Below, in pieces: positions 1-14,830 of a stretch of 64,000 nucleotides of DNA (position 1 is the first letter of the stretch; each line of letters opens with the position of its first letter). This stretch comes from Methanobacteriota archaeon (GTDB lineage: Archaea > Thermoplasmatota > Thermoplasmata > SG8-5 > DAIRED01): the NCBI GenBank assembly GCA_043799545.1, contig JAZDNO010000004.1, forward strand, positions 64,001 through 128,000, given 5' to 3'. The notes under the pieces were generated by a model. That model did not search any database. It worked only from the letters and a program-made list of their open reading frames with translations, and had not been told where the DNA came from. The position numbers were made by a program, and so were the translations under genes.

Positions 1-363
1 CCGCTTCTTCGCAACGTCCAGCAGCTCTGTGCCGACCCCCATTCGCCTGCGCGACTCGTCGACTGAGATGTCCCAGACGCGGATGCTGTTGTTCCAAGCC
101 TGGTGCTCGATTTGGATCAGCCCGGCCTCGGTTCCGCCGGCGAACGCCGCATAGACCTCTGTCTCGCCTTTGTATGGCTTCAGCAGGGGCTCGTTGAGGT
201 CCTTGACGAACGTCTCTGGAAATGGCTCCTTCCGCAGGGCGATTTCCCACCCGTCGCTGGTGCGCTTCAAACTCAGCCGGTACGTTCCGTCCGACGTGTA
301 GGCGAAGTCGTCCATCTTCCCCGCCAGCTCGCCCTTGTCAAGCTTCCTGATTTCGATCTTCAA
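1..363 (-). CDS. GNAT-family N-acetyltransferase (streptothricin acetyltransferase-like), 3' end runs off the window
   Basis: Not in the ORF track; translated by hand from a TTG at 363 overlapping the TGA of the upstream ATPase: [26 protein letters not shown]...[26 protein letters not shown], with acetyl-CoA motif A (V..xRRxGxGxxL). Confidence 0.8.
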
Positions 364-1466
364 GCAATGTCCTCGCCGTACTTCCTCACGAGCTTGCGGA
401 GCATCTCCGCGGAGAACGCCTCCTCCTCGAAGGGCTGCTTGCGCATGCGGTGCGGCAGCGCCATCTCCGCGGCCAGTACGACGTCCTCGACGGTCGTCTC
501 GTCGCGGCCCTCGAGCGCCGCGTTCGTCCTCGCCGAGCGCTCGATGATGATGTCCCCGCGATGGCCGTCGATGTTGAAGTCTATCCCCAGGCGCGTGATG
601 AGCTCGACGATTTTCATGGAAGTCTTTATCTTCGGGAGCCTCTCCATGGCCTCCAGGATGCGTTTGCGCAGCTCGTTCTGTGCGGGCTCCCACTTCTCCC
701 TGAATAAGACCGGGTCCTCCTGAAACTCGCGCGAGCGCTTGATTATCTCGACGCGCTTGTCAACTTCCTTGATGCCCTTGACCTCGGCCTGCAGCGCCAG
801 CCTGTCCAGGAGCTGCGGTCGTAGCTCCCCCTCCTCGGGGTTCATCGAGCCGATTATTACGAACTGAGACGGGTAGTTCAGGGAAATCCCCTCGCGCTCT
901 ATCGTCACCATCCCCATGGCTGCGGCATCCAGCAGGACGTCGACGACGTTGTCCTCCAGGAGGTTTATCTCGTCCACGTAGAGGATGTTGCGGTGCGCCT
1001 CCGCGAGGATTCCCGGCTCGAACGCCTCCACCCCCTCTTTGAGGACGCGCTCGATGTCTATCGCGCCGACGAGGCGGTCCTCCGTGATGTTGAGGGGCAG
1101 GTCGCACACGTTCATGTCCGTTTTCGTGGCCTTGAGCTCCCCCTTCTCGTGCTTCAGCTTGCACTCGTTGCAGAACTTCTCCGGCTTGTCGGTGGGGCGG
1201 CAGTTGAACTTGCAGCCCGTCACGTCCATCTTCGGAAGTATGTCCTGGAGCGCGCGCACCGCGATGGATTTGCCAGTCCCCTTCTCGCCCCTTATCAGCA
1301 CCCCCCCTATCTGGGGATTGACGACGTTGAGCAGCAGCGCCCTCTTGAGAACTTCCTGGCCGACTATGGCCGTGAACGGATAAATCCTCTCGGGCGAATG
1401 GCGCTTCCTCGAGCCCTGAACGGCCGGCGATGGTGTCTTTTTCTCCGTCCTCTTTTCGGGAGGCAC
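360..1466 (-). CDS. ChlI/BchI-like (Mg-chelatase subunit I family) AAA+ ATPase, catalytically intact
   Basis: PFTAIVGQ start, Walker A GEKGTGKS, Cys insert GCKFNC...CNEC, TEDRLVG, Walker [10 protein letters not shown], sensor/Arg-finger [22 protein letters not shown]. Confidence 0.92.
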
Positions 1467-1469
1467 GCC

Positions 1470-4331
1470 TCACCCCTTCCTGCCGTCGATGGACTCGCGC
1501 TCGCGCTGCTTCACGAGCTTGCGGAGCATCTCCTCGCTGAACTCCTCCTCCTCGTACGGGCGCCTGCGCATCCTGTGCGGCAAAGCCATCTCCGAGACGA
1601 CGACGATGTCCTCAGCCGCCACCTCAAGCCGTCCCTCGAATGCCGCGTTCGCCCGCGCCGCCCTCTCGATTATGATGTCCGCCCTGTGGCCGTCCACGTT
1701 GAAGTCTATGCACACCTGCGCTATCAAATCGTAGACGTGCTGAGGCGTCCTGACGTTGGGGAGTATCTCCCTCGCCTTCGTGATGCGCTCGCGCAGCTCC
1801 TGCCGCACTGGCTCGTGCTTGGCGCGGAATCCCTCCGGGTCGACTGTGAACTCCTCCCTCCGGCGCACGATGTCTATGCGAGACGTGACGTCCTGGATGC
1901 CGATGACGTCAGTTTGGAGCGCGATGCGGTCCAGTATCTGCGGCCTCAGCTCTCCTTCCTCTGGGTTCATCGAGCCGACGATGATGAACCTGGCCGGGTG
2001 CGAGAGGGAAATGCCCTCGCGCTCGACGTTCACGTTCCCGGACGAGGCCGAATCCAGCAATATGTCAACGATATAGTCGTCCAGCAAGTTTATCTCGTCC
2101 ACGTAAAGGATGCCTCGGTGCGCCTCCGCTAGGATTCCTGGCTCGAACGATTTTGTGCCTTCTGACAGAATCTTCTCTATGTCTATCGAACCGACGAGGC
2201 GGTCCTCCGTGATGTTCAGCGGCAGGTCAACGACCTGGACCTGGCGCGTGAAAGTCTCCAGCTTGCCTGCTTCGTAGCGAGCCGCGCACTCGGGGCAGAG
2301 CTTGTCCACCTCCTTGGGGTCGCAGATGAACTTGCATCCAGTCACTTCGATGTCCGGCAAGACCTCCGCCAAGCCGCGTACGCCGACGGACTTGCCCGTC
2401 CCCTTCTGTCCGCGTATGAGCACCCCTCCGACTTCCGGGTAGATGGCGTTGAGAATCATCGCCTTCTTCATCTTCTCCTGGCCGACGAGCGCGACGAACG
2501 GGAACAGCACGCGCTTCTGCTTGGTCTGCTCCACCATGCGGCCCGCCGCGGCCTTGAGCTTGAGCTTCTCCTCCTCCTCCAGGCGCTGGCGTATCTGGTT
2601 CTCCAGCTCCTGCTTCAGGTGCGAAAGCTCGCCTTCCTTCATGCGCAATTTTTCACGCGACTCGTCGAAGAGGTTGCGCTGGATTTCGAGGTCGGAGCGG
2701 GCCTTGATGAGGTCCTGCTCCTTCATCCTGATCTTTTCCTCCTCCTCCATCATGAACTCCTCGGTCTTGCGCTCGACCTCGGTCTGGACCAGGCTCTCCA
2801 TCTCCTGCTCCTTCATGTGGAGCTTCTCCTCCTCGGCTGCCAGGGCCTCGTTTTTCATTTCCAGCTCCGCCTGGATGGCAGAGACTTCTTGCTCCTTGAG
2901 GCGGACCTTCTCCTCCTCCTGCGCTATCTGCTCGGTCATGCTCTCGAGGCGCTGCTGGATTTCCTTCAGTTCCTCGTCCTTGAGGCGGAGGCGCTCCTCC
3001 TCCTCCTCGCGCATCTTCTCCATCTCCGTCTCCATGTCCGTCTTTATCTGGTCGATGTCGTTCTCCTTGTCCAGGTAAAGCTCGAAGTGCGCGCGGCCCG
3101 GGTCCTCGAGGACTGCCGGGTAGTTCATGTAGGCGATGAAGTCCAGGATTATCATCGTGGCGAGCACGATGATCATCACGATGCCGCCCAGGAGGTCGAT
3201 GGTTTCCGAACCGCCTTGCTGGTAAAACGCGGTGATGAATATCCCAATGAGCATGGCGAACGAGACCCAGATGCTGGCGAAGACGTTCAGCTTCGTGTCC
3301 CACGTGTGAAGAAGGGCGTCGACCGCGGTGATGATGACGGTTATCAGCAGCAGGTTGACCGTAATCGCCCCGCCCAGCATCGGCGCGAAGATCAGCATTG
3401 ACCGGGGTATCTTGTTGGAAATGTTGAACGTGAAGAGTATGAACTCGATGAACATGAACAGGGCGAGGAACGTGAAGAAGGTCACGGTGATGTTGCTGAC
3501 CCGGAAGTAGTTGAGGAACCCCTCGCTCTTCTCCTCCTCCAGCATCTCCTTAATCTTGCGCTTGCGCTCGTCCTTGCGCAGCTTGGCCCTCTCGCTCTCG
3601 TCCAGGTCATCGTCTTCCTCGAAATCGTCCCCGTCTTCCGCCGCTTCGTCCTCAGCGGTTTCGTCGCCCTCGCCATCGTCTTGCGGTTCGGCCTTCTTCT
3701 TGCCGAAACCGAAGCGTTTCTTCTTCGGAGCCTCCTCCTCGGCGACCTCCTCTTCCGCCGGTTCCCCGGATTCTGCATCATCCTCTTCCACGGCAATGTC
3801 TGGGGTTTCAGCGGCTTGTTCTTCTTCCCCGGCCGCCTTCTTCTTGCCGAAACCGAAGCGCTTTTTCTTCGGGGCTTCCGCCTCCTCAACGGTTTCAGGC
3901 TCCGCTTCAGGTTCTGCGGGGGCCTCTGGTGTCTTTGGTTTTTCCTCGGCTTTCGGCTCATCCTCTGGCACAGGCCCTGGTTTTCCCCCTCCCACGGAAC
4001 CCGCGTCCCAGCTCTCCTCAGTTTTCTTGATGGGATTGAAGCAGTTGGGGCAGATCTCGGCTATCTCGTCCACCCCTTTGCCGCATGAAGGGCATCTGAC
4101 GAAGTGCTCGAGGCTGGCGCTGCAGGATGGGCAGATCTTTGCCCCCGAGCCGACCAGCGTGCCGCACTCTGGGCAGCTCATCTGATCGCCGGGCACCTCG
4201 GCTGTAGGCACCCGCTCATGCGGCGCCTCCTGCGTTGCTGCGTCTTCAGGCAAATCTGCGCCGCAATTGGTGCACTGCGCCGCCTGGTCGTCGTAGTTGA
4301 CGGTTCCGCAATTCGAGCAGTAGCGCTCCAC
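1470..4331 (-). CDS. Membrane-anchored ChlI-like AAA+ ATPase: three double-Zn-ribbon units, acidic linker, 4 TM helices, long coiled coil, C-terminal intact AAA+ module
   Basis: CxxC pairs at N-terminus; two KKKRFGFGKKK repeats in an E/D-rich linker; four hydrophobic segments (~3120-3500); E/K/Q heptads (~2550-3060); [33 protein letters not shown] start. Confidence 0.88.
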   Translation of the reverse strand: MERYCSNCGTVNYDDQAAQCTNCGADLPEDAATQEAPHERVPTAEVPGDQMSCPECGTLVGSGAKICPSCSASLEHFVRCPSCGKGVDEIAEICPNCFNPIKKTEESWDAGSVGGGKPGPVPEDEPKAEEKPKTPEAPAEPEAEPETVEEAEAPKKKRFGFGKKKAAGEEEQAAETPDIAVEEDDAESGEPAEEEVAEEEAPKKKRFGFGKKKAEPQDDGEGDETAEDEAAEDGDDFEEDDDLDESERAKLRKDERKRKIKEMLEEEKSEGFLNYFRVSNITVTFFTFLALFMFIEFILFTFNISNKIPRSMLIFAPMLGGAITVNLLLITVIITAVDALLHTWDTKLNVFASIWVSFAMLIGIFITAFYQQGGSETIDLLGGIVMIIVLATMIILDFIAYMNYPAVLEDPGRAHFELYLDKENDIDQIKTDMETEMEKMREEEEERLRLKDEELKEIQQRLESMTEQIAQEEEKVRLKEQEVSAIQAELEMKNEALAAEEEKLHMKEQEMESLVQTEVERKTEEFMMEEEEKIRMKEQDLIKARSDLEIQRNLFDESREKLRMKEGELSHLKQELENQIRQRLEEEEKLKLKAAAGRMVEQTKQKRVLFPFVALVGQEKMKKAMILNAIYPEVGGVLIRGQKGTGKSVGVRGLAEVLPDIEVTGCKFICDPKEVDKLCPECAARYEAGKLETFTRQVQVVDLPLNITEDRLVGSIDIEKILSEGTKSFEPGILAEAHRGILYVDEINLLDDYIVDILLDSASSGNVNVEREGISLSHPARFIIVGSMNPEEGELRPQILDRIALQTDVIGIQDVTSRIDIVRRREEFTVDPEGFRAKHEPVRQELRERITKAREILPNVRTPQHVYDLIAQVCIDFNVDGHRADIIIERAARANAAFEGRLEVAAEDIVVVSEMALPHRMRRRPYEEEEFSEEMLRKLVKQRERESIDGRKG

Positions 4332-4333
4332 CC

Positions 4334-4999
4334 CTAATCTGCCTCCTCAGCGCCCTTGCGCTCTATCTTCTCGATCTTTCTGGCCAGCCTGTTGCTGAGG
4401 ACGCGCTTGTACAAAGTGAACCCGGCCGGTATGGCTGAGGCGGTCAGGGAGACCGCCACGAGCGCGTACACCTGGTACTCCTCTTGGATTATCGGCGGTG
4501 GCCTGTACTCGGAGGAGAACGGCCCCTCGTAGTATGCGGTCCTCCACGTATTGTCCGCGGCAAGGACCTTGATGGTCTTGCCCTGGAACTGCTCGAAGAC
4601 GAAGATTATTCGGATGGTGTTGTTCTTCACGTAATCGCCAACGAAGCGGTCGACTATGCATCTCCCCGCCTGGAGGGTGCCTCCCGCGTTGTCAACGAAT
4701 CTGTCGTTGACGTCGTAGGTCGTGTTCGTGTCGTGCTGGAAAAAGGTGACGTTCGCGACCTCGTCGCCGCTCCCGTCGATGACAAGCACATTCACGTTGT
4801 ATATGTCCAGCCCGCCGTTCTGGTCGTAAACCGTGACGTTGACTTCAACGTAATCCCCGTTCAATCCGACCCGGATGTCGCTGAACGTCGGGGGGATCCC
4901 CCAGACCCCCACGCCGCTCTGCGCTTTGGCGCCCTGAATGGCCAAGGCTAGAACGAACGTTGCGACTAGCGCCACGGCGAACATGCTCCTGGCCTTCAT
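4334..4999 (-). CDS. Secreted protein with signal peptide, beta-rich (Ig-like) domain and C-terminal membrane anchor
   Basis: N-terminal hydrophobic stretch ending AKA-Q; beta-strand pattern; C-terminal YALVAVSLTASAIPAGFTLY followed by basic tail. Confidence 0.75.
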   Translation of the reverse strand: MKARSMFAVALVATFVLALAIQGAKAQSGVGVWGIPPTFSDIRVGLNGDYVEVNVTVYDQNGGLDIYNVNVLVIDGSGDEVANVTFFQHDTNTTYDVNDRFVDNAGGTLQAGRCIVDRFVGDYVKNNTIRIIFVFEQFQGKTIKVLAADNTWRTAYYEGPFSSEYRPPPIIQEEYQVYALVAVSLTASAIPAGFTLYKRVLSNRLARKIEKIERKGAEEAD

Positions 5000-5004
5000 T
5001 TGCC

Positions 5005-6432
5005 CTATCCCCTCTTTCCTCGCCCCTTTTTCTTTTGCTTGCGCTGCTCTTTCTCCTTCTTTTTAAGGTTCGAGTAGTATGCCATGAAGCCGACGATCAC
5101 TGCCACGACCGCGACGATGGCGATGATGGCCATCCAATTGATTTCCACAGGCTCCTTGTAATCGGACGGCACTCTGTCAACTGTGACGGCGGTCGAGAAC
5201 AACTCCTCGCGCGCGGCCCCGCCGTCCGACCAGCCAAGAGTGTATATTATGCGCGCGGTGAACGCGGTCGTCGATGCCTTCTCCGCCTTGATTGTGATGC
5301 GAAGGTGCCTCTCAGTGACGTTCGAAAGGCTCAGCACGATGCTAGCCGGATCCACGGCCACGTCGTCGATTGTGGCGGAGGTAATCGTGATGTTGTCACC
5401 CACCAGCGAGAGCGTCGCGCTCCCCTCTCCAGTGAAGTACGCGTCTACGGTCGTGCTGTTGCCGAACTTCAGGAGCGGAACGTTTTTCACATACTGGACT
5501 ATGACCTTTCCAAAGTCCAGGAGGGTGTACCCGGTCCTCTGGACGTTGACGTTTATCGAGAATTGCTGCTCGAATGCGGGAACGAGCGCGACTGTCGCGG
5601 GGGTGATGAGGTACTTCGGCTCTCCGCGCACCGTCCCCGTGACCTTGAGCTCGCGCGGGCTCCATGCGGGGGCGGCGAAATCGATGAAATAGAATCGCTC
5701 CTCGCCGGGGTGGAAGATGGGGTAGTTGTCGCCGGCCTTCAGGGGCTCTGACTCGTTGTTCTTGTCCCACTTGAACCTGGTCGAGAAGTATTCGCCGAAG
5801 GGTTCAAAGCGAAGCGACAGCGTCAGCGGGACGTTCTCCACGTTGTTGGCCCTGACGTAGAAGCTCTGGTCCGCCGGGTCGAAGGACGAGACGCTCTGGG
5901 TCTGGAACGGCGACACGGCGAAGAAAAAGTCCGGCCTTGACAGGGAGAATCCGGATTCCGGCACCTCCACGACCACGTCGCCTGCCCAATCGAGAGCGCC
6001 GTCGACGTAGACTGTGAAGTTCCAGACGCCCGGAGTCGCCCTCGCGGACATTCCGACCGCGAATTTGTATATGTTGTTTGCTCCTATCGAGCACTGGCTG
6101 AGATTTACATACATCCCGTACTTCGCGTCCGACCAGACGCTGTTGACGCATGCCCAAGAATAGTAGTTGGTATCATCCTGGACGGCGGGAGCGGTCGCTC
6201 CCGGGTGGCATACGATGGTCACGTTCGCATGCGGCGCATCCAGCGAAACATCGATGGAGTGTATCACGCCAGCGACCATGATTGGAACTGTTCCGGCCGA
6301 AAACCTGAGGCTCTCGCCGGGTATGTAGAAGCTGACGGAGCTTACGGCGGCGGACGCGGGACCGGCCAATGGGGTCAGGGCCAAGAATCCGAGGGCCAGC
6401 AACACCAACACCGAGAGCGCTCGCATTCTCAT
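5005..6432 (-). CDS. Cell-surface protein with signal peptide, Ig-like beta-sandwich domains, C-terminal TM helix and Lys-rich tail
   Basis: ORF-track start 6456; ATG at 6432 follows GGAGGGG; signal peptide to ASA-A; WMAIIAIVAVVAVIVGFMAYY + KKKEKEQRKQKKK. Confidence 0.78.
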   Translation of the reverse strand: MRMRALSVLVLLALGFLALTPLAGPASAAVSSVSFYIPGESLRFSAGTVPIMVAGVIHSIDVSLDAPHANVTIVCHPGATAPAVQDDTNYYSWACVNSVWSDAKYGMYVNLSQCSIGANNIYKFAVGMSARATPGVWNFTVYVDGALDWAGDVVVEVPESGFSLSRPDFFFAVSPFQTQSVSSFDPADQSFYVRANNVENVPLTLSLRFEPFGEYFSTRFKWDKNNESEPLKAGDNYPIFHPGEERFYFIDFAAPAWSPRELKVTGTVRGEPKYLITPATVALVPAFEQQFSINVNVQRTGYTLLDFGKVIVQYVKNVPLLKFGNSTTVDAYFTGEGSATLSLVGDNITITSATIDDVAVDPASIVLSLSNVTERHLRITIKAEKASTTAFTARIIYTLGWSDGGAAREELFSTAVTVDRVPSDYKEPVEINWMAIIAIVAVVAVIVGFMAYYSNLKKKEKEQRKQKKKGRGKRG

Positions 6433-6469
6433 AGTTCGCCCCTCCAAAGCATACATGTCGTTAGAAGGC

Positions 6470-6489: not shown

Positions 6490-6497
6490 GCTATTAA
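6490..6497 (+). repeat. Left target-site duplication GCTATTAA
   Basis: Exact match to 14831-14838, immediately outside the inverted repeats. Confidence 0.95.
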
Positions 6498-6558
6498 GGT
6501 TCTGTTGCGTTTAAGGGTGCTATCACCCGCCGCTAGTGCCCTGTTGCACGGCGGGTGC
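6498..6558 (+). repeat. Left transposon end: terminal IR plus subterminal TGTTGC-Nx-GGGTG boxes
   Basis: TGTTGCGTTTAAGGGTG (6503-6519), TGTTGCACGGCGGGTGC (6542-6558), inverted CACCCGCC (6524-6531). Confidence 0.85.
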
Positions 6559-6632
6559 TGACCTCGATTAAAGGCATCCGAAAGTGGCTTATACGCGCTC
6601 CACGATGCCCGCAGCATAGGAGAGTGCTAGGG

Positions 6633-6941
6633 GTGCGATTGAGTATATTGGCCGTCGGAGTTGTAATCTTAGTGCTGGGTATGGTCGTCGCCTTATTGGG
6701 AATACAGGCCGACCTTGATAACCCCTATGTCACTATGCCAACCAGCAGTGGATATTCATACTACTACCCGCCAACGAGCATCGGTATGGCTGTGTTTGGC
6801 GCTTTAATGATGGCGGCGGGCACATTTTTCATGGGGTTGGGTGCTGGCATCCCCTCCCCCGTCAAATATACTTGTCCCAATTGTGGGGCAAAAGATTCGG
6901 CCAGTAATTTTTGTAAAGGCTGTGGTATGAAGTTGCGATAA
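6633..6941 (+). CDS. Small 2-TM membrane protein with C-terminal zinc ribbon (transposon cargo)
   Basis: Two hydrophobic helices then CPNCG...FCKGCG; start uncertain (track 6555, GTG at 6633 preferred). Confidence 0.65.
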   Translation: MRLSILAVGVVILVLGMVVALLGIQADLDNPYVTMPTSSGYSYYYPPTSIGMAVFGALMMAAGTFFMGLGAGIPSPVKYTCPNCGAKDSASNFCKGCGMKLR

Positions 6942-6984
6942 ACGGCCAGTAATACTTTGGGTGCAAGGCGCCCAATTTGCAATA

Positions 6985-7374
6985 CTATTTATTTTGTTTC
7001 TGTGCTTGCACCTTTGTGTAAATTTCGACTATCTGGTTGAAATTTCGTCTGTTCTTTAATTGTGCAACGATTTCATCTGTCTTTTTCAAATCACCAGATA
7101 GAATGCCTTGCTGGACCATTGTAACACAAACTTTCCACTCATTACAGTTCATCCATTCCTTTTGAAAAAACCACATCCAGAATAATGAAACCGCAATGCC
7201 TATCAAACCTAGCATCCACATGGGGAAATCCTGTAAGCATGCGATAACTGAGCCCACAAATAGCGATATTGATACGAGGAGTCGCTGATTGACTATGCCC
7301 AGAATTGAAACAGCGCTGGCGTGCTCACATTCCAGATACGACAACCAATCCTGCAAGGTTAATTTTTCTTCCAT
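6985..7374 (-). CDS. Small 2-TM membrane protein of unknown function (cargo)
   Basis: LLVSISLFVGSVIACL and WMLGLIGIAVSLFWMWFF helices; start at 7374 or 7389 avoids overlap with the upstream gene. Confidence 0.6.
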   Translation of the reverse strand: MEEKLTLQDWLSYLECEHASAVSILGIVNQRLLVSISLFVGSVIACLQDFPMWMLGLIGIAVSLFWMWFFQKEWMNCNEWKVCVTMVQQGILSGDLKKTDEIVAQLKNRRNFNQIVEIYTKVQAQKQNK

Positions 7375-7399
7375 CGCGGTCAAACCCATTTTATAGGCA

Positions 7400-7636
7400 T
7401 CATTTTTTCTTTTGATTGTATTGCTCTTCCCGAGCCAACCGTTCATAAGCCGCTCTTTTTCGCTCGGAAATTATTAGACAACTGGCTTCGACACTACCGC
7501 ACATCCTATTTGCCATCGAATTCCAGACACCATGATATACTTCAAGCCATGTGTATTTTGCCAATAAATATTTCAAATCTTTTATCATTTTATCGGCGAT
7601 TTCTCGGTCTTTTTGTTCAAAGGCTTTAATTTCCAT
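7400..7636 (-). CDS. Small helical hypothetical protein (cargo)
   Basis: RBS GAGGTGA precedes ATG at 7636, overlapping the stop of the upstream gene. Confidence 0.55.
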   Translation of the reverse strand: MEIKAFEQKDREIADKMIKDLKYLLAKYTWLEVYHGVWNSMANRMCGSVEASCLIISERKRAAYERLAREEQYNQKKK

Positions 7637-8354
7637 AATTTTCACCTCGCCCATAACGCCTTCTGACATCGTTTCCATCTAATTCAGAGCCACAATTGGA
7701 GCATTTATAATTCTTTCCCAGCCATTTAAGGTCGCCAACGCTGCAAACATGGCATTTTGGGCTACTCCCTTCCAATGGGTCTTTTAACTCACTACCGACC
7801 TCCGCCCCCCTTGACGGTAGCGCTTTTCTTTCGACTGTACCGCCCCTTACCATATATCCTTCTTCGACCCCACCGAGTTTACCCATTAACTCTGCGGGTT
7901 TTCTCCCCGATGGCATTTCAAGCTTTAATTCATGTGACCGTTTTACTTTGCTATAAAACGTTTTCCAGCATCGTAATACGTGCTTGTTTTGATAATCCTG
8001 CAAGTCATCGAATGTTGGCTCAAAATACTCATTATCGTCATTACATACAGTCAGGTATATCCCATACGAATGAAGATATTCCAGTACCTTACTATAAAAT
8101 TCTTCCTCATCCTCCACATGCTTTAATAGGTCTGGTTCGAGGAGCGTATAATACATGTATTTCGATAGTATGGCCTCACGAATCCCCCTTAATCCATTAT
8201 ATGCCCTATTATGGTCTTTAGTATTATCGGGGTCCCAACCGATTCCCCGAATCATGACCTCTAATGTGAACTTGTTCTCTGGCCCCCGGTCCCTAATCCA
8301 CCTCAGGATTTGGCGTCTAACTTTTCCCATCGCTATGGGTGTTTTTTTATTCAT
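7626..8354 (-). CDS. Hypothetical protein with putative N-terminal winged helix and C-terminal zinc ribbon (cargo)
   Basis: RBS GAGGTGG before ATG 8354; N-terminal RRQILRWIRDRG...F(T)LEVMIRGIG pattern; CHVC...YKCSNCG. Confidence 0.65.
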   Translation of the reverse strand: MNKKTPIAMGKVRRQILRWIRDRGPENKFTLEVMIRGIGWDPDNTKDHNRAYNGLRGIREAILSKYMYYTLLEPDLLKHVEDEEEFYSKVLEYLHSYGIYLTVCNDDNEYFEPTFDDLQDYQNKHVLRCWKTFYSKVKRSHELKLEMPSGRKPAELMGKLGGVEEGYMVRGGTVERKALPSRGAEVGSELKDPLEGSSPKCHVCSVGDLKWLGKNYKCSNCGSELDGNDVRRRYGRGENYGN

Positions 8355-8398
8355 TTTTACCACCTCTTCTTCCCACGGGGGCGTAGCAGATGATGCAA

Positions 8399-9385
8399 TT
8401 ACTCTTCTAGCGCCTCCCTAATTTGCTGGCATTTCTCCTCGATAGCATCTACCATTTTTATAATTTGTTGTTTTTGCTTGGGTATCAATTTTACGATGCG
8501 TTTATGATTGACTAATAAGATACGCTCACAACTTTTCTGAAACTCTTCGATAAACATTTGGTTTGAATCGTGCACTCTTGGTACATCTATGGCGGGTGTC
8601 TCGATTCCTTTTCTTTGGCTTACGCGAATATCCTCCACCCGCTCTTTTAATTCCCTATCTGAATAATCGTATTTCTTTACTTCATTGAGAACTACAATTT
8701 GTGTTTTTTCATCCTCGACTTCAGACAATATTTTTAATTTCTCAGGATTTAATGTTGATGTTTTACTAACAAATTCCTTTTGTACAGATTCCGGCGCTTT
8801 TTTCATTAGAGTAACCACATCGCCGACCTCGCTGGTTTGTATTTCGCCCTTTTCTACTCTCTTAAGAAATGATTCTCTTAGATTTTTTTCGGGTATTCGT
8901 GAGACTTCGTACAGTGATGATGTAGGCACCGAAGACGGCGTCTTCGCTTCATCCCTAATTTCTCTTGCTTTTAATATGTGCTGGATAGCGGTTTTATCGG
9001 AGTACCCCAGGGCATCTGCGAGGTCACCTTGATTTTTATATATGCCCGCCACCCATATTTCCTGTATCGCATGCTCCCTTTCAGTCGATGATAAATCTTG
9101 GCGATGTAAATTTTCTATAAGGGATTCCACCAGAACCTGGTTATCCGAAACGTTTTTTATTACTGCCGGGATTGTAGCTTTATTAGCTAGCTTACTGGCC
9201 CTCCAACGACGCTCACCACATATAATTTCGTACCTATTTCCTTTTTTTCTAACGACAATTGGTTGTAATATTCCATGAATTTTAATCGAATTGGCGAGTT
9301 CTTTAATATTCTCTTTTGTGAACTTCTCTCTCGGTTGCATCGGATTCGGCGTTAGCATCTCAATATCTAGTTCTTGATACTCCAT
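8399..9385 (-). CDS. parB: ParB/Spo0J-family protein (CTPase domain + HTH), no ParA in window
   Basis: PNPMQPR, LANSIKIHGILQPIVVR, ICGERRWRA, ENLHRQDL, then HTH (QGDLADALGYS). Confidence 0.9.
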   Translation of the reverse strand: MEYQELDIEMLTPNPMQPREKFTKENIKELANSIKIHGILQPIVVRKKGNRYEIICGERRWRASKLANKATIPAVIKNVSDNQVLVESLIENLHRQDLSSTEREHAIQEIWVAGIYKNQGDLADALGYSDKTAIQHILKAREIRDEAKTPSSVPTSSLYEVSRIPEKNLRESFLKRVEKGEIQTSEVGDVVTLMKKAPESVQKEFVSKTSTLNPEKLKILSEVEDEKTQIVVLNEVKKYDYSDRELKERVEDIRVSQRKGIETPAIDVPRVHDSNQMFIEEFQKSCERILLVNHKRIVKLIPKQKQQIIKMVDAIEEKCQQIREALEE

Positions 9386-9619
9386 GTTAAATTCCCCCGG
9401 ATACTCTGTTTAACGTACATCATCATACTCGTATAAATAACTACATTTCACCTTTCGACTACCCCTATTCGAATTTTACGAAGAGACGAACATCAATTTA
9501 GGAAGCATTCAGGGCTTTTATCACATTATTTTTCAAGGGAAACCGTAGTCAATCCCCCGATAAATATATATATTGCCTGTTTTTTCAGTAAATTATTTAT
9601 AGTAATGCTGCTTTAACCG

Positions 9620-10168
9620 ATGGTAGTAACTATGGAGTTCGTTCCCATGTTAATAAACCAAGAAGAAGGCTGGCGTTTGCCCGAATTATACGATACCATG
9701 ACACCAACTGAAAAGGCATCAGCTATTAAATCTTGCGTTTTAACTTTTCTTAATAACAATGGACCGGCTCCAAAATCAGTAATCGGAAAAGCGATAGGCA
9801 CGACTCATGAAGACAGCTTAAAAAGGGCTTTGGATTACTTGGTTCATACTCGTCAAATTTATTCAGAGAAATGGGGTTCGCGAAATCCAGTATATTTCCC
9901 GAATGGTTGTTTGGGGCACCCCCTCTATCAGGGGCGTATAATTTGTGGTCGGAAGGAATACACAATTAGAACATATATAGACCGAGTCACTGGTAGAAAT
10001 TTAACAATAACTGAGTATGAAAAAGATTATTCGGGTAAACAAGACCCCAAAGGAGGCATTAGAATAGACGCCGTGGATTTAGACGCCATTATTAGAGAGT
10101 TAGTGAGGATAAATGACTCATTGCGCCAGAGTGTTGAAATTAACGACAGAGGTCTAATATCAAGGTGA
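9620..10168 (+). CDS. Winged-helix protein fused to a PUR/PC4-like (DUF3276-like) nucleic-acid-binding domain (cargo)
   Basis: VLTFLNNNGPAPKSVIGKAIG...LKRALDYL wHTH pattern; C-terminal EYTIRTYIDRVTGRNLTITEYE...GIRIDAVDLDAIIREL resembles a PUR repeat. By-eye call. Confidence 0.55.
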   Translation: MVVTMEFVPMLINQEEGWRLPELYDTMTPTEKASAIKSCVLTFLNNNGPAPKSVIGKAIGTTHEDSLKRALDYLVHTRQIYSEKWGSRNPVYFPNGCLGHPLYQGRIICGRKEYTIRTYIDRVTGRNLTITEYEKDYSGKQDPKGGIRIDAVDLDAIIRELVRINDSLRQSVEINDRGLISR

Positions 10169-10172
10169 GAAA

Positions 10173-11504
10173 ATGAACACGCAACTATCAATGTATGTGG
10201 AGGAAGAGGACGCGCAAAAGGCTGTATGTAGATTCGGGAATCTTAAAATTCCCCGAGGATTATTTTCAATGCCGACAATAAGTCCAGGTATTCAGAAAAA
10301 TTTAGATGTGGAAGCATTGATGGCTAACATTAGCGGTGGCTCCTTCCCACATGCAATTACGCCACATCTCAGCACAAAACAGAGATATATTGTGAAATTA
10401 ATGCCAATGCTCCCCTCTGGCAAAGGCGTTATACATCCGTTTGTTGTGCCAGACCCGGAATATGAGGCTCTTTCCGTCAATTGTCTTGCGAGATTGAATT
10501 ATATGCAATTTGAAAATCCACCCCCCACAGTGCGTATGATTATGGATTCGGGGCTGACCGATGACCCGGATACAGATAGATTTAATGTAACAACAAGATG
10601 GCAAACCATTAGGCAGCGCTATGGCCTTGCTCCTTTGTTAGATTGGTCGTTAAATCTTCACGACTCCATCAATTCCGATTTGTATCTTGCACCGACCCCG
10701 ATAATGCGGGCCGATGAAAAACTTAAAAGCATTGAAGAGGCTTTTACCAGTGGGTATTTCCTTCTCTCAAATGCCGTCAGTTCGGCTCGATTCGCGTTGA
10801 ATGGGATTCACACGTTGCTCCATATCGAAATTTTTTCCGATACGGATGAAGCTGACGCTGCTCGAAACAAGATACTTACTGAGTTCGAGTCTTGGAAATC
10901 CGAGAAACAGCAATATCGGGGTTCAATAGTAGGCATAAAGCTCTATGACCCAAACAACTTATTCGGAGAAGCTGACTCGGGTTCAGTAAGGCGCAGATTA
11001 TTCAGCGAATTTGTAACAGAGCTTTCATCAAAGGTTCGAGGAGCCGATGGTTTTGTCATTGGTTATAATTTTGCCAATCTATCTCTTGGAATTTTGGATA
11101 GCGGCGCAGATTTAGCTACATTCAAAGTGGCTGGGGGAATGCGTATCGATGTGCCAATTAAATCAAGCAAGGGGAAGCGTGGTAAACGAAGGATTCCTTC
11201 CGTATTCGACGGAAGCACACTTTCCGAGGTGGGAAGCGACATCATCAAACAAACTTACAATAAATATGGTTCATTCCCTGTGCCGGCGTGTATGCAACCG
11301 AAGCCATATTGGGACGAAAATTATAAGGAGGCGTCGATATACGCGAGAAGAACCCGTTGTGCCTCATTGATTGCAGTTGGTGAAGAATATCGAGCAGCGG
11401 CGCTCGATAATGCAATCCCGTTGAAAGATTCCTTACGAAATCGAATTATGCAAAGTGAGGCGAGACAAGAATTGATTGATTTGTGTCCAACAATAAACGG
11501 TTAA
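10173..11504 (+). CDS. Divergent TIM-barrel protein resembling tRNA-guanine transglycosylase (TGT/DpdA) or beta/sce7725-type families (cargo)
   Basis: RBS AGGTGA; N-terminal RFGNLKIPRGLFSMP resembles TGT RxGxLxTPxGxIxTP; GADL near the last barrel strand; no GxDxFD Asp or CxCxxC site. Confidence 0.45.
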   Translation: MNTQLSMYVEEEDAQKAVCRFGNLKIPRGLFSMPTISPGIQKNLDVEALMANISGGSFPHAITPHLSTKQRYIVKLMPMLPSGKGVIHPFVVPDPEYEALSVNCLARLNYMQFENPPPTVRMIMDSGLTDDPDTDRFNVTTRWQTIRQRYGLAPLLDWSLNLHDSINSDLYLAPTPIMRADEKLKSIEEAFTSGYFLLSNAVSSARFALNGIHTLLHIEIFSDTDEADAARNKILTEFESWKSEKQQYRGSIVGIKLYDPNNLFGEADSGSVRRRLFSEFVTELSSKVRGADGFVIGYNFANLSLGILDSGADLATFKVAGGMRIDVPIKSSKGKRGKRRIPSVFDGSTLSEVGSDIIKQTYNKYGSFPVPACMQPKPYWDENYKEASIYARRTRCASLIAVGEEYRAAALDNAIPLKDSLRNRIMQSEARQELIDLCPTING

Positions 11505-11644
11505 TACAAATATATATTGACTTCACCCCGATGTCATAATCGCTGCCAGCTCATTTGCCTATACCGGGCCTTTCGACCCAGATTAATGTTGACATCAAAG
11601 TTGAACTCCTTCTCTATTCTCTGGGCGGTGTGAAAAATAATAAA

Positions 11645-11809
11645 TCATGCCTTACGAACGACAGCGACTATACTCTTACCCTCGTTACGGATGAGCCAGT
11701 TTACCTCATCTCCTGCCCTCAAGTTAAGGGATTCGACTACGGCCTCGGGAATAGTGGTTCGTAACGAGGGACTGGTTGTATTTGCTTTTGAAATCTTGGT
11801 ATTAGGCAT
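11645..11809 (-). CDS. AbrB/MazE/SpoVT-family DNA-binding protein (54 aa), divergent from the transposase
   Basis: Not in the ORF track; hand translation MPNTKISKANTTSPSLRTTIPEAVVESLNLRAGDEVNWLIRNEGKSIVAVVRKA* with the TIPxxVxExLxLxxGDxVxW signature. Confidence 0.8.
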   Translation of the reverse strand: MPNTKISKANTTSPSLRTTIPEAVVESLNLRAGDEVNWLIRNEGKSIVAVVRKA

Positions 11810-11840
11810 GGATACAGGATATGCCTCTGGCCGTATTTAT

Positions 11841-11907
11841 AGTTACCTATATACTGATAATCGTAGTTACCATAACCTTTATATCCTCCCTTGCTATATA
11901 GGTAACT
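11841..11907. promoter_or_regulatory. Divergent abrB/transposase promoter with 13-bp perfect inverted repeat (putative operator)
   Basis: AGTTACCTATATA (11841-11853) and TATATAGGTAACT (11895-11907) bracket a central TAGTTACCA and a CTTTATAT box. Confidence 0.65.
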
Positions 11908-13095
11908 GTGGTAGTAACCACAGAGGCAACAAATATGATGATGGACGATGCGAGACAGGCGCGGGGATTAGAGATACTAAAGGACGAGAGCGCAGTAGTG
12001 CGCATAAGCCAGAAAACTTACCACGTCAAGAGCCAGAGCGGGGAGGGGTTCTACACGGTTAAAAAGCAGATGGGGCTTTGGGGTTGCACATGCCCAGACT
12101 TCACCAACCGAAAGGTGTACTGCAAGCACATCTACGCCGTTGAGTATAGCCAGAAGCTCCGAAAACTCATCAAAACCGAGGAGAGGCCGAGGCCCGTAAT
12201 CGACGCAACCATGCACCCGATGTGCTGCCCGTCGTGCCACGCCGGGGAAATCAAGAGGAATGGCAACCGCGCAACCAAGAACGGGCCAATCCAGCGCTAT
12301 AAGTGCGAGGCTTGCGGATTCAGATTCACCATAGACAAGGGCTTTAGTGGTATGAAATCCGTTCCCGAGAGCATTTTAGCTTCGGTGGACCTCTATTTCA
12401 AGGGGCTTTCTTACCGCAAGATAGTGGACCACCTCAAGCAGTTCTATGGCGTGACTGTCAGCCAGACCACGCCGATGCGCTGGGTGACGAAGTACCTTAA
12501 GATGCTCGGAGATTACGCCGAAAAGCACCAGCCAGACGTGGGGCGCATGTGGCACAGCGACGAAATGGCTCAGAAGGTGAACGGTAAGCAGATGTGGGTT
12601 TGGAACGTCATGGACCACGAAACGCGCTTCTTGCTGGCCTGTAAGATTTCAGAGGGGCGCAGCATCCGCGAAACGAGGGCTGCGATAAGGGTAGCCAAGG
12701 AGAAGGCCGGGAAGCGCCCGGACTTCTTTGTTACCGATGGATTGCCAACATACCCGATAGCAGCCCGAAAGGAGTTCGGACCCGGGGAGAAGTTCGACAC
12801 GCAGAGCCGCCACCACAGATACAAGGATTTCCGCACAGCGCCCAACAACAATATCCTAGAGCGCTTGAATGGAACGCTCAGAGAGCGCTTCAAGGTGATG
12901 CGGAGCTTCGACAACCCCGAGAGCGCCGCCCGGATGCTTGCGGGCATCCAGACGTACTATAACTACGTCAGAGAGCACTCGGTACTAGGCACGACCCCGG
13001 CAATCGAGGCCGACATAGACCTAAACCTCGGAGAGAACCGCTGGGCCGGGATGGTTGGCCTGGTTGCGAATCAAAAGCAGTTCGGGGGCGTGTGA
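11908..13095 (+). CDS. tnp: IS6/IS240-like DDE transposase with N-terminal SWIM zinc finger and IS1-like zinc ribbon
   Basis: SWIM CTCPDF...CKH; CPSC...QRYKCEACG; HTH; WHSDEM, WNVMDHETRFLL, VTDGLPTY, NNILERLNGTLRERFK. Start may be 11935. Confidence 0.9.
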   Translation: MVVTTEATNMMMDDARQARGLEILKDESAVVRISQKTYHVKSQSGEGFYTVKKQMGLWGCTCPDFTNRKVYCKHIYAVEYSQKLRKLIKTEERPRPVIDATMHPMCCPSCHAGEIKRNGNRATKNGPIQRYKCEACGFRFTIDKGFSGMKSVPESILASVDLYFKGLSYRKIVDHLKQFYGVTVSQTTPMRWVTKYLKMLGDYAEKHQPDVGRMWHSDEMAQKVNGKQMWVWNVMDHETRFLLACKISEGRSIRETRAAIRVAKEKAGKRPDFFVTDGLPTYPIAARKEFGPGEKFDTQSRHHRYKDFRTAPNNNILERLNGTLRERFKVMRSFDNPESAARMLAGIQTYYNYVREHSVLGTTPAIEADIDLNLGENRWAGMVGLVANQKQFGGV

Positions 13096-13156
13096 AAGCG
13101 CGCTCCCAATTTTCTAGTTTTTACATATAACGTATGTTATACCGGAATACTAAAAT

Positions 13157-14491
13157 CTATTTAATATCGATTTTCTCACACTCATCCAGTAATTTTATTG
13201 CTTCGGAAAAAGGGATTAATGATTTTGGGAAAGGAGTAAATGATGCAACCCTAAGAAGTGCAGCTGCTTTGCTAACACATAAGCGATGTTTATATCCAGT
13301 ATCTTTATTTTCTTTGGCAAAAATATCTAATTTGCCCTCTATAAATTGTACAAATCGGTCTACGCGCTCGTTCTTAGGCAAGGTATAATTGATTCGATGC
13401 TCATTCTTTACGACGTGATAATTTATTTTAATAGGTGCATATTTATATTTTACTTTATTACCATTAATTTCCTCGGTATGAATCGGACTAAATATTGCAA
13501 TATCCGATAATAATTCACCAAGGTCATAAATATAATCACCCCTCAGGGATAATTGGTCAATATCAATGAACTTGACGCTATTAGCATGTCTCGATACTTT
13601 TTCCATAAAAACATTTCTACCATGACAATCCCCATGCTGGATTGTATTAAATGGCGGTATAAATTTTGGATAATTAGTTAAAATTCGCTCAACGTAAAAT
13701 CGGACATTTTTATATTTAAAACCATTTACAATATATTCCGCTTCAGGATAAATCAAAGGTAACATCGTGTCATTAAATTTCAATATGTCTCGATAGAAAT
13801 GTTCGAGATATGGGGGTTTCGTCAAAGCTAGCAATTGATTCGCAGAGTCGACTTTTTTTGTTTGTGAATACATTAAATTAAATGCTCCCCATAAACTTTC
13901 TAAATGTTTATTATCAAAGCCAAAAGACCTATTCCAGATAAATTCGTATAGTGGTTCAAAATCAGCTAGGTATTCAATTCGCATTACATGGAGTCGGTCA
14001 TTTTTATAGGTAAATTGCTCGGGCTTATGCGGCTGAGCAAATAAATGCAATATTGGCCCCGGAACTTCGGATTCAATTTTATCGTAGTCGGGTATATCCG
14101 ATTTACTTATTTTTAAAACAGTAGTATACTCAGATAATGTCGTTTGTCCATCTTCTTTCTCCCCCCCAATTGAAATGGAATGCTTTGTGCGATAAACTTG
14201 GTCGCCGCTATATCCACCAGACAATCTGTACAGTTCCTTGATTTTCGATTGAATATTAGTAGTTATCATTAATCCGGTATGGACATGCGTGAAACTTAGA
14301 ACTTGTTTTTCAATTTCATCATCTGCTAGTGTCCTCTTACCTTTTAACAGATTTTTTACTAATTTAGCTTGTTCTTTAATATCTGCATCCAGTTTATCAT
14401 TCGGCTCATTGTCTTTAATATTATATGTTTTTTTAATGATTTTCGCAATCCTTTGAACTGTTATAGGCGATGGTTTATTCCTACTTCCCAT
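13157..14491 (-). CDS. Aminoglycoside-phosphotransferase/choline-kinase-fold kinase (cargo)
   Basis: Gly loop LSGGYSGDQVY, VLK lysine, catalytic HGDCHGRN, metal-binding FIDID, YDLGEL. Confidence 0.78.
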   Translation of the reverse strand: MGSRNKPSPITVQRIAKIIKKTYNIKDNEPNDKLDADIKEQAKLVKNLLKGKRTLADDEIEKQVLSFTHVHTGLMITTNIQSKIKELYRLSGGYSGDQVYRTKHSISIGGEKEDGQTTLSEYTTVLKISKSDIPDYDKIESEVPGPILHLFAQPHKPEQFTYKNDRLHVMRIEYLADFEPLYEFIWNRSFGFDNKHLESLWGAFNLMYSQTKKVDSANQLLALTKPPYLEHFYRDILKFNDTMLPLIYPEAEYIVNGFKYKNVRFYVERILTNYPKFIPPFNTIQHGDCHGRNVFMEKVSRHANSVKFIDIDQLSLRGDYIYDLGELLSDIAIFSPIHTEEINGNKVKYKYAPIKINYHVVKNEHRINYTLPKNERVDRFVQFIEGKLDIFAKENKDTGYKHRLCVSKAAALLRVASFTPFPKSLIPFSEAIKLLDECEKIDIK

Positions 14492-14513
14492 TATTACACC
14501 AGAATGAAAGGGT

Positions 14514-14651
14514 TTATTCTTCGTAGATGATTAAATCCTGATTATATTGTGCATCTCTCATTGTATAGCATTTTAATCCTTCGCGCATGTATGAGTTCAA
14601 GTTTTTTCCACCACATGGCCCAGCATTTAAACTCTTTATTCTACCTACCAT
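14514..14651 (-). CDS. Possible 45-aa peptide immediately upstream of the kinase
   Basis: GGTGA RBS before ATG 14651 (MVGRIKSLNAGPCGGKNLNSYMREGLKCYTMRDAQYNQDLIIYEE*), 22 nt gap to the kinase start. Confidence 0.3.
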   Translation of the reverse strand: MVGRIKSLNAGPCGGKNLNSYMREGLKCYTMRDAQYNQDLIIYEE

Positions 14652-14770
14652 CTTAATCACCAACGCATCCCATCCGACATGCAGTTCAGGATTAGACAAC
14701 TAGTAAATAAATCTAGCGACAACGAATATATACTGATAGTGGTGGCAGTATAATCGGTTGGCTCAGATTG

Positions 14771-14830
14771 GCACCCACCGTGCAACACCCCGTTTAGATG
14801 CAACAAAACACCCGCCTACGCAACAGAACC
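14771..14830 (-). repeat. Right transposon end: terminal IR plus subterminal boxes
   Basis: Reverse complement reads GGTTCTGTTGCGTAGGCGGGTGTTTTGTTGCATCTAAACGGGGTGTTGCACGGTGGGTGC: three TGTTGC...GGGTG units; the inner one matches the left 6542-6558 box at 16/17. Confidence 0.85.

Follow-up and report, generated by a model that had tools for sequence, protein, structure and literature searches.

We examined a 64,000-nucleotide (nt) stretch of DNA from a Methanobacteriota archaeon (GTDB lineage Thermoplasmatota; Thermoplasmata; SG8-5; DAIRED01; assembly GCA_043799545.1, contig JAZDNO010000004.1, positions 64,001 to 128,000 of the forward strand), referred to here as the window, and in it the gene for a 953-amino-acid (aa) protein, P1, in which a membrane domain and a long helical stalk precede an AAA+ module of the ChlI/BchI type. 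AAA+ proteins of this type are the textbook soluble motors of the tetrapyrrole chelatases. P1 is encoded by a single uninterrupted open reading frame (ORF; 1470-4331, minus strand) that starts with GTG behind a Shine-Dalgarno-like GAGGAGG, and it lies within a cassette of four genes together with two predicted surface proteins (P4 and P3) and a soluble ChlI-type paralogue (P2). What is new here is the architecture of P1 as a variant of a known AAA+ family, and the uncharacterised cassette in which it lies, which defines a new adaptor family with four transmembrane (TM) helices (4-TM). The features of the cassette, with the evidence for them, including that from AlphaFold2 (AF2) models and their predicted local distance difference test scores (pLDDT), are as follows.

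5005-6456, minus strand: P4, a 483-aa type I membrane protein with a signal peptide, stacked Ig-like/ASH-like beta-sandwiches, a C-terminal TM helix and a basic tail (AF2, Foldseek, cassette position)
4334-4999, minus strand: P3, a 221-aa type I membrane protein with a signal peptide, one Ig-like ectodomain and a C-terminal TM helix (always just upstream of the fusion)
4032-4331, minus strand: three 4-Cys zinc ribbons, P1 residues 1-100 (three Pfam Zn_ribbon_3 matches plus DZR, Cys positions, AF2 pLDDT 70-81)
3600-4031, minus strand: disordered, acidic, proline-containing linker, P1 residues 101-244 (composition, motif positions, AF2 pLDDT 25-30)
3519-3599, minus strand: basic juxtamembrane helix, P1 residues 245-271 (AF2 helix 245-267, K/R-rich sequence)
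3120-3518, minus strand: 4-TM adaptor domain, P1 residues 272-404 (Kyte-Doolittle, AF2 helices, alignments A2 and A6)
2505-3119, minus strand: YPAVLEDPGR post-TM motif, helical stalk and KQKRVLFPF connector, P1 residues 405-609 (autocorrelation, spacing, AF2 helix)
1470-2504, minus strand: ChlI/BchI-type AAA+ module, P1 residues 610-953 plus stop (Pfam, NCBIfam, ATPase motifs, matches to solved structures)
360-1466, minus strand: P2, a 368-aa soluble ChlI-type AAA+ paralogue with intact motifs, 3 nt downstream of P1

At the N-terminus of P1, zinc-ribbon models covered residues 2-27 and 53-97 (Zn_ribbon_3 three times, with the one DZR match at 53-97), and the 12 cysteines (5/8/20/23, 53/56/67/70 and 80/83/94/97) formed three CxxC...CxxC units. 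An initial annotation, made from the DNA letters without database searches, had described three double zinc-ribbon units; the zinc ribbons themselves stood, and their count required a minor correction to three 4-Cys ribbons, one single and one double. The acidic linker that it reported, with two copies of KKKRFGFGKKK, was borne out by the composition of residues 101-244 (52 D/E, 20 K/R and 14 P) and by the positions of the motif (residues 155-165, nt 3837-3869, and residues 203-213, nt 3693-3725). The linker varied in length and sequence among P1 homologues and was missing from short forms. In one family such short forms, of 643-668 aa, began at the 4-TM domain, and the zinc ribbons and linker are therefore dispensable or accessory.

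Four TM helices, as first annotated, were recovered both as segments of the Kyte-Doolittle profile and in the AF2 model (residues 275-301, 325-344, 347-373 and 377-403). No Pfam family matched this 4-TM domain. It contains an N-x-S/T sequon conserved in loop 1, an invariant histidine after TM2 (His342) and an invariant aspartate at the end of TM4 (Asp397), and a charged residue within TM1 that is acidic in the ChlI type and a lysine in the other types of the domain. The sequon is consistent with a loop 1 that would lie outside the cell, and the basic juxtamembrane helix is predicted, by the positive-inside tendency, to lie on the cytoplasmic side. An N-in/C-in topology fits both of these features as well as the ATP-dependent domain and the zinc ribbons, in agreement with the earlier view that both ends probably face the cytoplasm. 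The zinc ribbon and acidic linker are found N-terminal of the 4-TM domain in one type and C-terminal of it in another, which also fits two cytoplasmic ends.

Beyond TM4, the AF2 model showed the stalk as one continuous helix of ~190 residues (413-602). Six 28-aa repeats ran across residues 434-601 (nt 2529-3032; autocorrelation at lag 28, z = 6.6), the hydrophobic periods were 7.16 and 3.57 residues, and every 28-residue repeat carried a near-invariant acidic-basic motif (EEE-K-h-R-h-K-E). The continuous helix, the repeats and the heptad-like period upheld the long helical stretch of ~170 aa noticed at the outset. At a helix rise of 0.15 nm per residue, 168-190 residues would extend over ~25-28 nm if straight. 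The distance from the TM4-exit motif YPxxLE to the AAA+ start FPFxxxVGQ was exactly 206 residues in about 20 distinct homologues, the N-terminal regions of which ranged from about 240 to 530 residues (a spread of ~300), and this constancy despite variable N-terminal parts gave strong support to the idea that the AAA+ module is held at a fixed distance from the membrane. Spacings of 195, 191, 178 and 225 residues were found in other clades, departing from 206 by 11, 15, 19 or 28 residues, with one sequence at 207. Stalk length changes of 11 or 28 residues would preserve the phase of a coiled coil (hendecad/heptad geometry). The KQKRVLFPF connector was nearly invariant in the alignment of 19 full-length homologues. 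Across the families of the class, identity to the window protein was 49-61% in the stalk, compared with 30-39% in the 4-TM domain and 68-84% in the AAA+ module. Conserved as it is in both length and sequence, the stalk is more than a passive spacer.

Long helices of constrained length that join an AAA+ domain to a distant binding site are familiar from the dynein stalk and from ER/K spacers. Dynein forms its stalk as an antiparallel hairpin arising inside the ring, whereas the single helix of P1 enters the AAA+ module at its N-terminus. A pure ER/K single-helix stalk was judged less likely for P1 given the strong conservation (84-100%) of its heptad-spaced hydrophobic positions, in which it differs from pure ER/K spacers.

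The C-terminal module of P1 matched TIGR02030 (BchI-ChlI) over residues 610-932 with 409.6 bits, and ChlI/BchI-type models as a group reached across residues 610-938. Against solved ChlI/BchI structures the module gave E = 9e-101 (8osf), 6e-98 (6l8d) and 5e-92 (1g8p), and of the 348 aa of the module the match took in residues 1-324. Walker A, Walker B, sensor 1, arginine finger and sensor 2 were all intact in P1 (including GHRADI), with equivalents in P2, and both proteins look catalytically competent from their motifs. The P1 module and P2 were 60% identical over 335 aa, including a common C-terminal tail. With complete motifs and full-length homology to solved ChlI, the intact AAA+ module claimed for the P1 C-terminus held up, as did its close paralogy, shared tail included, to the adjacent soluble ChlI. 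Both proteins also carry a four-cysteine insert, C-x3-C-x8-C-x2-C (C666, C670, C679 and C682 of P1; 2286-2336, minus strand), with further equivalents in two other proteins of the window, P5 and P7. The insert has no counterpart in cyanobacterial ChlI, its four cysteines were invariant in 19 fusion homologues, and it is possibly a structural zinc site.

The fusion is not peculiar to this assembly. A word-indexed search of 5.8 billion proteins brought up seven more clusters that share the complete architecture (48-87% identity), and at least 19 independent assemblies (NCBI, JGI and ENA) contained the same uninterrupted fusion junction, at 45-81% overall identity to the window protein (alignment A6). 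Of 401 genomes sampled from the same class, 33 gave the fusion in a six-frame scan with the TM-plus-stalk part. Within its own order it was found in four families (1/1, 9/13, 5/5 and 2/2 genomes), the misses being genomes that are 59-77% complete. Phylum-wide, 400 sampled genomes gave only one weak match, which belonged to a paralogous 4-TM-PAS cassette. GC content ran evenly across the P1 gene, and MCM and NMD3 among the neighbouring genes confirmed an archaeal source. The initial annotation had named an assembly chimera or a missed stop as one way in which the fusion could prove false, and homologues with the N-terminal part as a separate gene as another. An artefact of the first kind, whether a chimera or a read-through of two genes, had no evidence in its favour, has virtually no chance of being correct and is refuted by the shared junction and invariant connector in those independent assemblies and by the smooth GC profile. 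As to the second, no split orthologue was found in the protein search or the class-wide scan. Proteins of 300-400 aa with a 4-TM domain were considered as split forms of the fusion and rejected, being paralogues with other tails.

In a maximum-likelihood tree of ChlI proteins, in which several Methanosarcinales ChlI were missing (unmatched by the motif filter) and outgroup sampling was thin, the fused AAA+ modules formed one clade (support 100/98) and their soluble neighbours another (97/95). The two clades joined each other (94/92) apart from most other sampled ChlI, with congruent internal branching, a pattern that fits an old tandem duplication with co-inheritance of both copies since. Of the origin first suggested for P1, a tandem duplication followed by fusion, the duplication is thus supported by the sister clades and congruent branching; the account does not extend to the membrane part, since the 4-TM domain is pre-existing and modular. 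The accompanying statement that ChlI proteins are soluble proved too absolute, as other Thermoplasmatota ChlI homologues carry different TM anchors. N-terminally extended ChlI from Thermoplasmatota metagenomes (P0171, P0172, P0207, P0213, P0211 and P0223) displayed several architectures, among them a zinc ribbon with 2-4 unrelated TM helices, ~7 TM helices with a glycine-rich linker, zinc ribbons with DUF835, and coils of >300 residues. A literature search found nothing relevant on membrane-anchored ChlI, the P1 architecture in Thermoplasmatota, the other anchored ChlI forms or DUF4332, a domain that accompanies some relatives of the 4-TM segment.

The gene order P4 (~450-540 aa), P3 (~215-260 aa), fusion and soluble ChlI (~350-390 aa) was found in every locus with enough flanking DNA, the genes being separated by gaps of 2-5 nt or overlapping (5, 2 and 3 nt in the window), and it held down to 26-34% identity for P3 and P4. 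The Shine-Dalgarno-like sites of the window cassette genes sit inside the upstream genes. P3 and P4 each have a signal peptide, a beta-rich ectodomain, one uncharged C-terminal TM helix and a short basic tail, and neither matched a Pfam, NCBIfam or PADLOC family. The AF2 model of P4 (pLDDT 86) is a stack of Ig-like sandwiches with the TM helix at its end. Its Foldseek neighbours were pilins, integrin-alpha leg domains and ASH-domain proteins, all generic Ig-like matches with low TM-scores (multidomain matches), and the Atlas structural neighbours of P3 were weak and Ig-like only. A defence system was considered and rejected: there was no relevant PADLOC match, and the synteny of the cassette and its near-universal presence across its order speak for a housekeeping function.

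The reading that we favour, at a probability of roughly 0.55, is that P1 is the subunit that anchors a ChlI/ChlD-like ATP motor in the membrane. This motor, conserved in one group of Thermoplasmatota and associated with the envelope, would be coupled to a surface-protein complex. The core would be a membrane complex of the 4-TM adaptor with P4 and P3, both of them Ig-like and anchored at the C-terminus. From the membrane the adaptor would continue as a rigid stalk of fixed length and pass through an invariant 7-residue connector into a competent ChlI-type AAA+ module, which would co-assemble, most likely with P2, as ChlI does with ChlD. Two further ChlI-related proteins of the window, the pseudo-ATPase P5 and the vWA-bearing P7, would probably join this ring, and the whole ring complex would be held at a set distance below the membrane. 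An ATP-driven conformational change could then pass, mechanically or allosterically, via the stalk to the membrane and the surface proteins and result in remodelling or signalling, while the zinc ribbons on their acidic tether may serve as an accessory cytoplasmic head for binding or regulation. What the analysis shows directly is the architecture, the logic of the topology, conservation, synteny, the constraint on stalk length, paralogy, the integrity of the motifs and the failed search for ChlH/CobN. The parts that we infer are the hetero-oligomer and its stoichiometry, the docking of the ring, any contact between P1 and P3 or P4, the direction in which coupling runs, and the role in the cell. 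The interest of the system lies in a ChlI-type motor tied to the membrane by a new 4-TM domain, with a stalk length held to the residue by selection. If this reading holds, the known range of the ChlI AAA+ clade widens, a rare new membrane adaptor family with swappable cytoplasmic heads is added, and a compact testable system becomes available for how a cytoplasmic ATPase communicates across the archaeal membrane.

The cytoplasmic tail of P3 bears a conserved motif, R-R-x-x-S-N-K-L-A-R-x-I-E, that differs between ChlI-type cassettes and the paralogous zinc-ribbon-type cassettes listed below. A tail motif that is conserved and specific to ChlI-type cassettes, encoded in the same operon as a membrane-tethered AAA+ module, would also suit quality control or extraction, in which the ring on its tether takes hold of the P3 and P4 cytoplasmic tails to extract, unfold or recycle the two proteins in the manner of FtsH/Cdc48-type machines. 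FtsH and archaeal LonB likewise present an AAA+ ring at the cytoplasmic face of the membrane. They have protease domains and sit close to the membrane without a long stalk, whereas no protease domain was found in P1, where the LonB model matched only a 30-residue stretch of the AAA part (26 bits). A ring ~25 nm from the membrane would moreover be badly placed to pull on tails of ~20 residues, and AAA+ proteins of the ChlI/MoxR clade act by remodelling partner complexes, substrate threading not being known among them. We regard extraction as improbable.

The 4-TM domain of P1 belongs to a small family. An exhaustive search of 1.84 billion representatives with its profile (alignment A2) returned only 112 clusters, and P1 shares with the family the four TM helices, the loop-1 sequon, the histidine after TM2 and the aspartate at the end of TM4 (alignments A2, A5 and A6). 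In all loci with flanking DNA, non-ChlI forms included, the 4-TM gene directly followed a gene pair of the P4/P3 type. The same two surface-protein genes adjoined non-ChlI 4-TM forms in four sequenced loci. In three of these (L032-L034) a P4-like and a P3-like gene precede a 302-aa protein in which an acidic linker joins the 4-TM domain to a C-terminal zinc ribbon and which is without AAA+; in the fourth, from another class of the phylum (L012:69-2730), they precede a 401-aa 4-TM-coil-PAS-like protein. The three paralogous zinc-ribbon-type cassettes are located as follows.

L032:6574-9517: paralogous zinc-ribbon-type cassette
L033:8804-11720: paralogous zinc-ribbon-type cassette
L034:4279-7195: paralogous zinc-ribbon-type cassette

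Three more 4-TM members have an unannotated gene of ~205-224 aa ahead of them and a larger one before that (448 aa where complete), with overlapping ends, a match by gene size and order only. These arrangements show the 4-TM segment to be a rare, pre-existing modular anchor with swappable tails that was not invented for the fusion. In L032-L034 a third secreted protein (~350 aa) lies ahead of the cassette and very large FG-GAP-like repeat surface proteins lie after it. P0024, a 570-aa 4-TM member, is preceded by genes of 350, 448 and 224 aa and followed by a gene of the archaeal flagellin type (type IV pilin-like).

The domains found with the 4-TM segment bring in the main rival to a motor, namely a receptor in which P4, P3 and the 4-TM domain form the sensor, the cytoplasmic module is the output, the stalk is a signalling helix that transmits the signal by its register, and the AAA+ pair switches a cytoplasmic target without performing work on the surface proteins. 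Among 93 family members the most frequent partner was PAS (28/93), followed by DUF4332 (8), ChlI (6), zinc ribbon (6) and TPR (3), so that PAS and other typical signalling or adaptor modules are common, and the length changes of the stalk include the phase-preserving 11 and 28 residues. The Atlas structural neighbours of the 4-TM domain were mostly membrane modules of signalling proteins, with TM-scores of only ~0.5; these matches are generic four-helix membrane bundles. Neither a kinase, cyclase, helix-turn-helix nor receiver domain was found in the cassette, and a second active ATPase, P2, together with pseudo-ATPases better fits a motor than a switch. On balance a receptor is a credible but unlikely alternative.

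A broader proposal takes the motor reading further. The P4-P3-4TM triad might be an unrecognised archaeal platform for trans-membrane coupling, driven here by the ChlI-type AAA+ pair, such that a ring ~25 nm inside the cell moves or switches Ig-like surface proteins through a register-sensitive stalk of fixed length. We hold this to be speculative and rather unlikely. If true, archaea that possibly lack a rigid wall would be able to control adhesion, surface architecture or cell shape from the inside out, the ChlI clade would gain a new functional class, and the range of membrane-spanning motors would grow by a new kind.

The two further ChlI-related proteins proposed to join the ring are encoded on the same strand as the cassette, upstream of it.

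14816-15784, minus strand: P5, a 322-aa pseudo-ChlI with degenerate Walker A and Walker B (in relatives directly upstream of P4)
23689-26451, minus strand: P7, a 920-aa protein with vWA followed by two pseudo-AAA (ChlI-like) modules without Walker A

In P5 the Walker A motif reads GERDTGKR and Met-Glu replaces the Asp-Glu of Walker B. P5 adjoins P4 in three related loci (L009, L010 and L029), and in the window ~8.3 kb of low-GC DNA lie between them. This stretch (6490-14838; GC ~0.40-0.43 compared with ~0.60 around it) carries a ParB-N gene (8399-9385) and other genes, and it is an insertion, because the flanking genes are adjacent in those three loci. Full-length relatives of P7 occurred in essentially the same lineages as the fusion and in several families lay within ~12 kb of the cassette, and this co-occurrence is only suggestive, the relatives being non-independent genomes.

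A vWA protein of the kind represented by ChlD in the neighbourhood, best family matches to cobaltochelatase and BchI-ChlI models (464 and 410 bits) and the strong similarity to solved ChlI (E = 9e-101) could point to a genuine chelatase, with P1 and P2 as the I and D-like subunits of a membrane-localised Co, Ni or Mg chelatase. The scores remain below curated cut-offs: TIGR02030 gave 409.6 bits for P1 and 405.7 bits for P2 against a cut-off of 466.95, and the cobaltochelatase model likewise fell short of its own. A search for PF02514 (CobN/ChlH) found nothing in the genome, which is 94.2% complete, but detected the family in five control genomes. A ChlD with the order AAA, linker, vWA was not found; the only vWA relative, P7, is rearranged (vWA, pseudo-AAA, pseudo-AAA) and its AAA modules are dead, Walker A having been lost. 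The constant operon partners are surface proteins and include no tetrapyrrole genes. A chelatase is thus very improbable, and from its sequence and gene context P1 is almost certainly no tetrapyrrole chelatase. Annotations of 'Mg chelatase subunit I' in Thermoplasmatota metagenomes should accordingly not be taken as tetrapyrrole metabolism.

Several points weigh against the proposal that P1 anchors a motor coupled to surface proteins. The contacts of P1 with its partner proteins are putative, gene neighbourhood among related genomes is non-independent evidence, and neither in the window nor in G416 do P5 and P7 adjoin the cassette. We know of no documented cell-surface role for AAA+ proteins of the ChlI clade, and in a genome that is 94% complete the missing ChlH/CobN gene is no proof of absence. 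The AF2 model is a monomer, with pLDDT of 52-75 in the stalk and moderate confidence in the TM part also. Finally, the stalk could be a single stable alpha-helix instead of a coiled coil, because it is very rich in glutamate, lysine and arginine and its invariant residues are mostly charged.

Four known systems come near to the favoured motor in different respects, and in none of the four are a ChlI module, a long stalk and an anchor of TM helices combined. Closest by sequence are the Mg-chelatase subunits ChlI/BchI and ChlD/BchD (PMC10653834; 8osf, 6l8d, 1g8p), with which P1 has in common a full ChlI homologue with all motifs, the combination of an active subunit and an extended paralogue, an acidic proline-containing linker, and a vWA protein in the wider neighbourhood. 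Unlike in ChlD, the extension of P1 is N-terminal, and zinc ribbons, four TM helices and a 190-residue helix replace vWA. Both paralogues look active, the operon partners are surface proteins, ChlH/CobN was not found and the curated ChlI cut-off is unreached, all in contrast to the ChlI/ChlD pair.

By gene context the closest are the MoxR-vWA modules found in predicted surface or secretion systems of archaea (arCOG01314 neighbourhoods; PMC5898192). There, too, archaeal genomes group the genes for an AAA+ protein from this broad clade and a vWA protein with genes for Ig-like proteins that are secreted or reside in the membrane. P7 supplies the corresponding vWA partner here. Those modules have a soluble ATPase of the COG0714 MoxR/GvpN kind and a secreted vWA protein (PMC5898192), whereas the ATPase of P1 is ChlI-type and membrane-anchored via the new 4-TM domain, and its vWA protein appears cytoplasmic. 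P2 scored 19.8 bits with AAA_3 (MoxR), under the cut-off of 27, and far higher with ChlI models, which places it outside the MoxR family. None of the Pfam families named in PMC5898192 was found in P3 or P4.

In design logic P1 most resembles ZorAB, the membrane motor of Zorya defence, whose 70-nm coiled-coil tail reaches into the cytoplasm and links a membrane event to cytoplasmic effectors (PMC11946911). Both have a multi-pass protein that continues into a long helical tail of important length, and single-pass partners with extracellular domains. P3 and P4 differ from the ZorAB partners in having a signal peptide and a C-terminal anchor, without an N-terminal TM helix that carries a key aspartate. 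The tail of P1 ends in an AAA+ ATPase, its gene belongs to the syntenic core of an archaeal order and not to a defence island, and no PADLOC or Pfam match to a MotA/ExbB/ZorA-type subunit was obtained for the P1 cassette. CoxD, a BchI-like AAA+ protein, fractionates with the membrane and has no TM segment (PMC3471820).

Large genes of other kinds surround the cassette. Next to the P5 gene lies one for a 1618-aa protein (15882-20738, minus strand) with Laminin_G_3, beta-helix/NosD repeats and Ig-like domains, and similar giants flank the cassette in L009 and L010. On the same contig, upstream of the window (L007:4774-8940) and ~6-10 kb downstream of P2, are two large TPR proteins, one of which has an AAA_16 (STAND-like) domain. 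A homologous 380-aa TPR gene was found near the cassette in L009 too.

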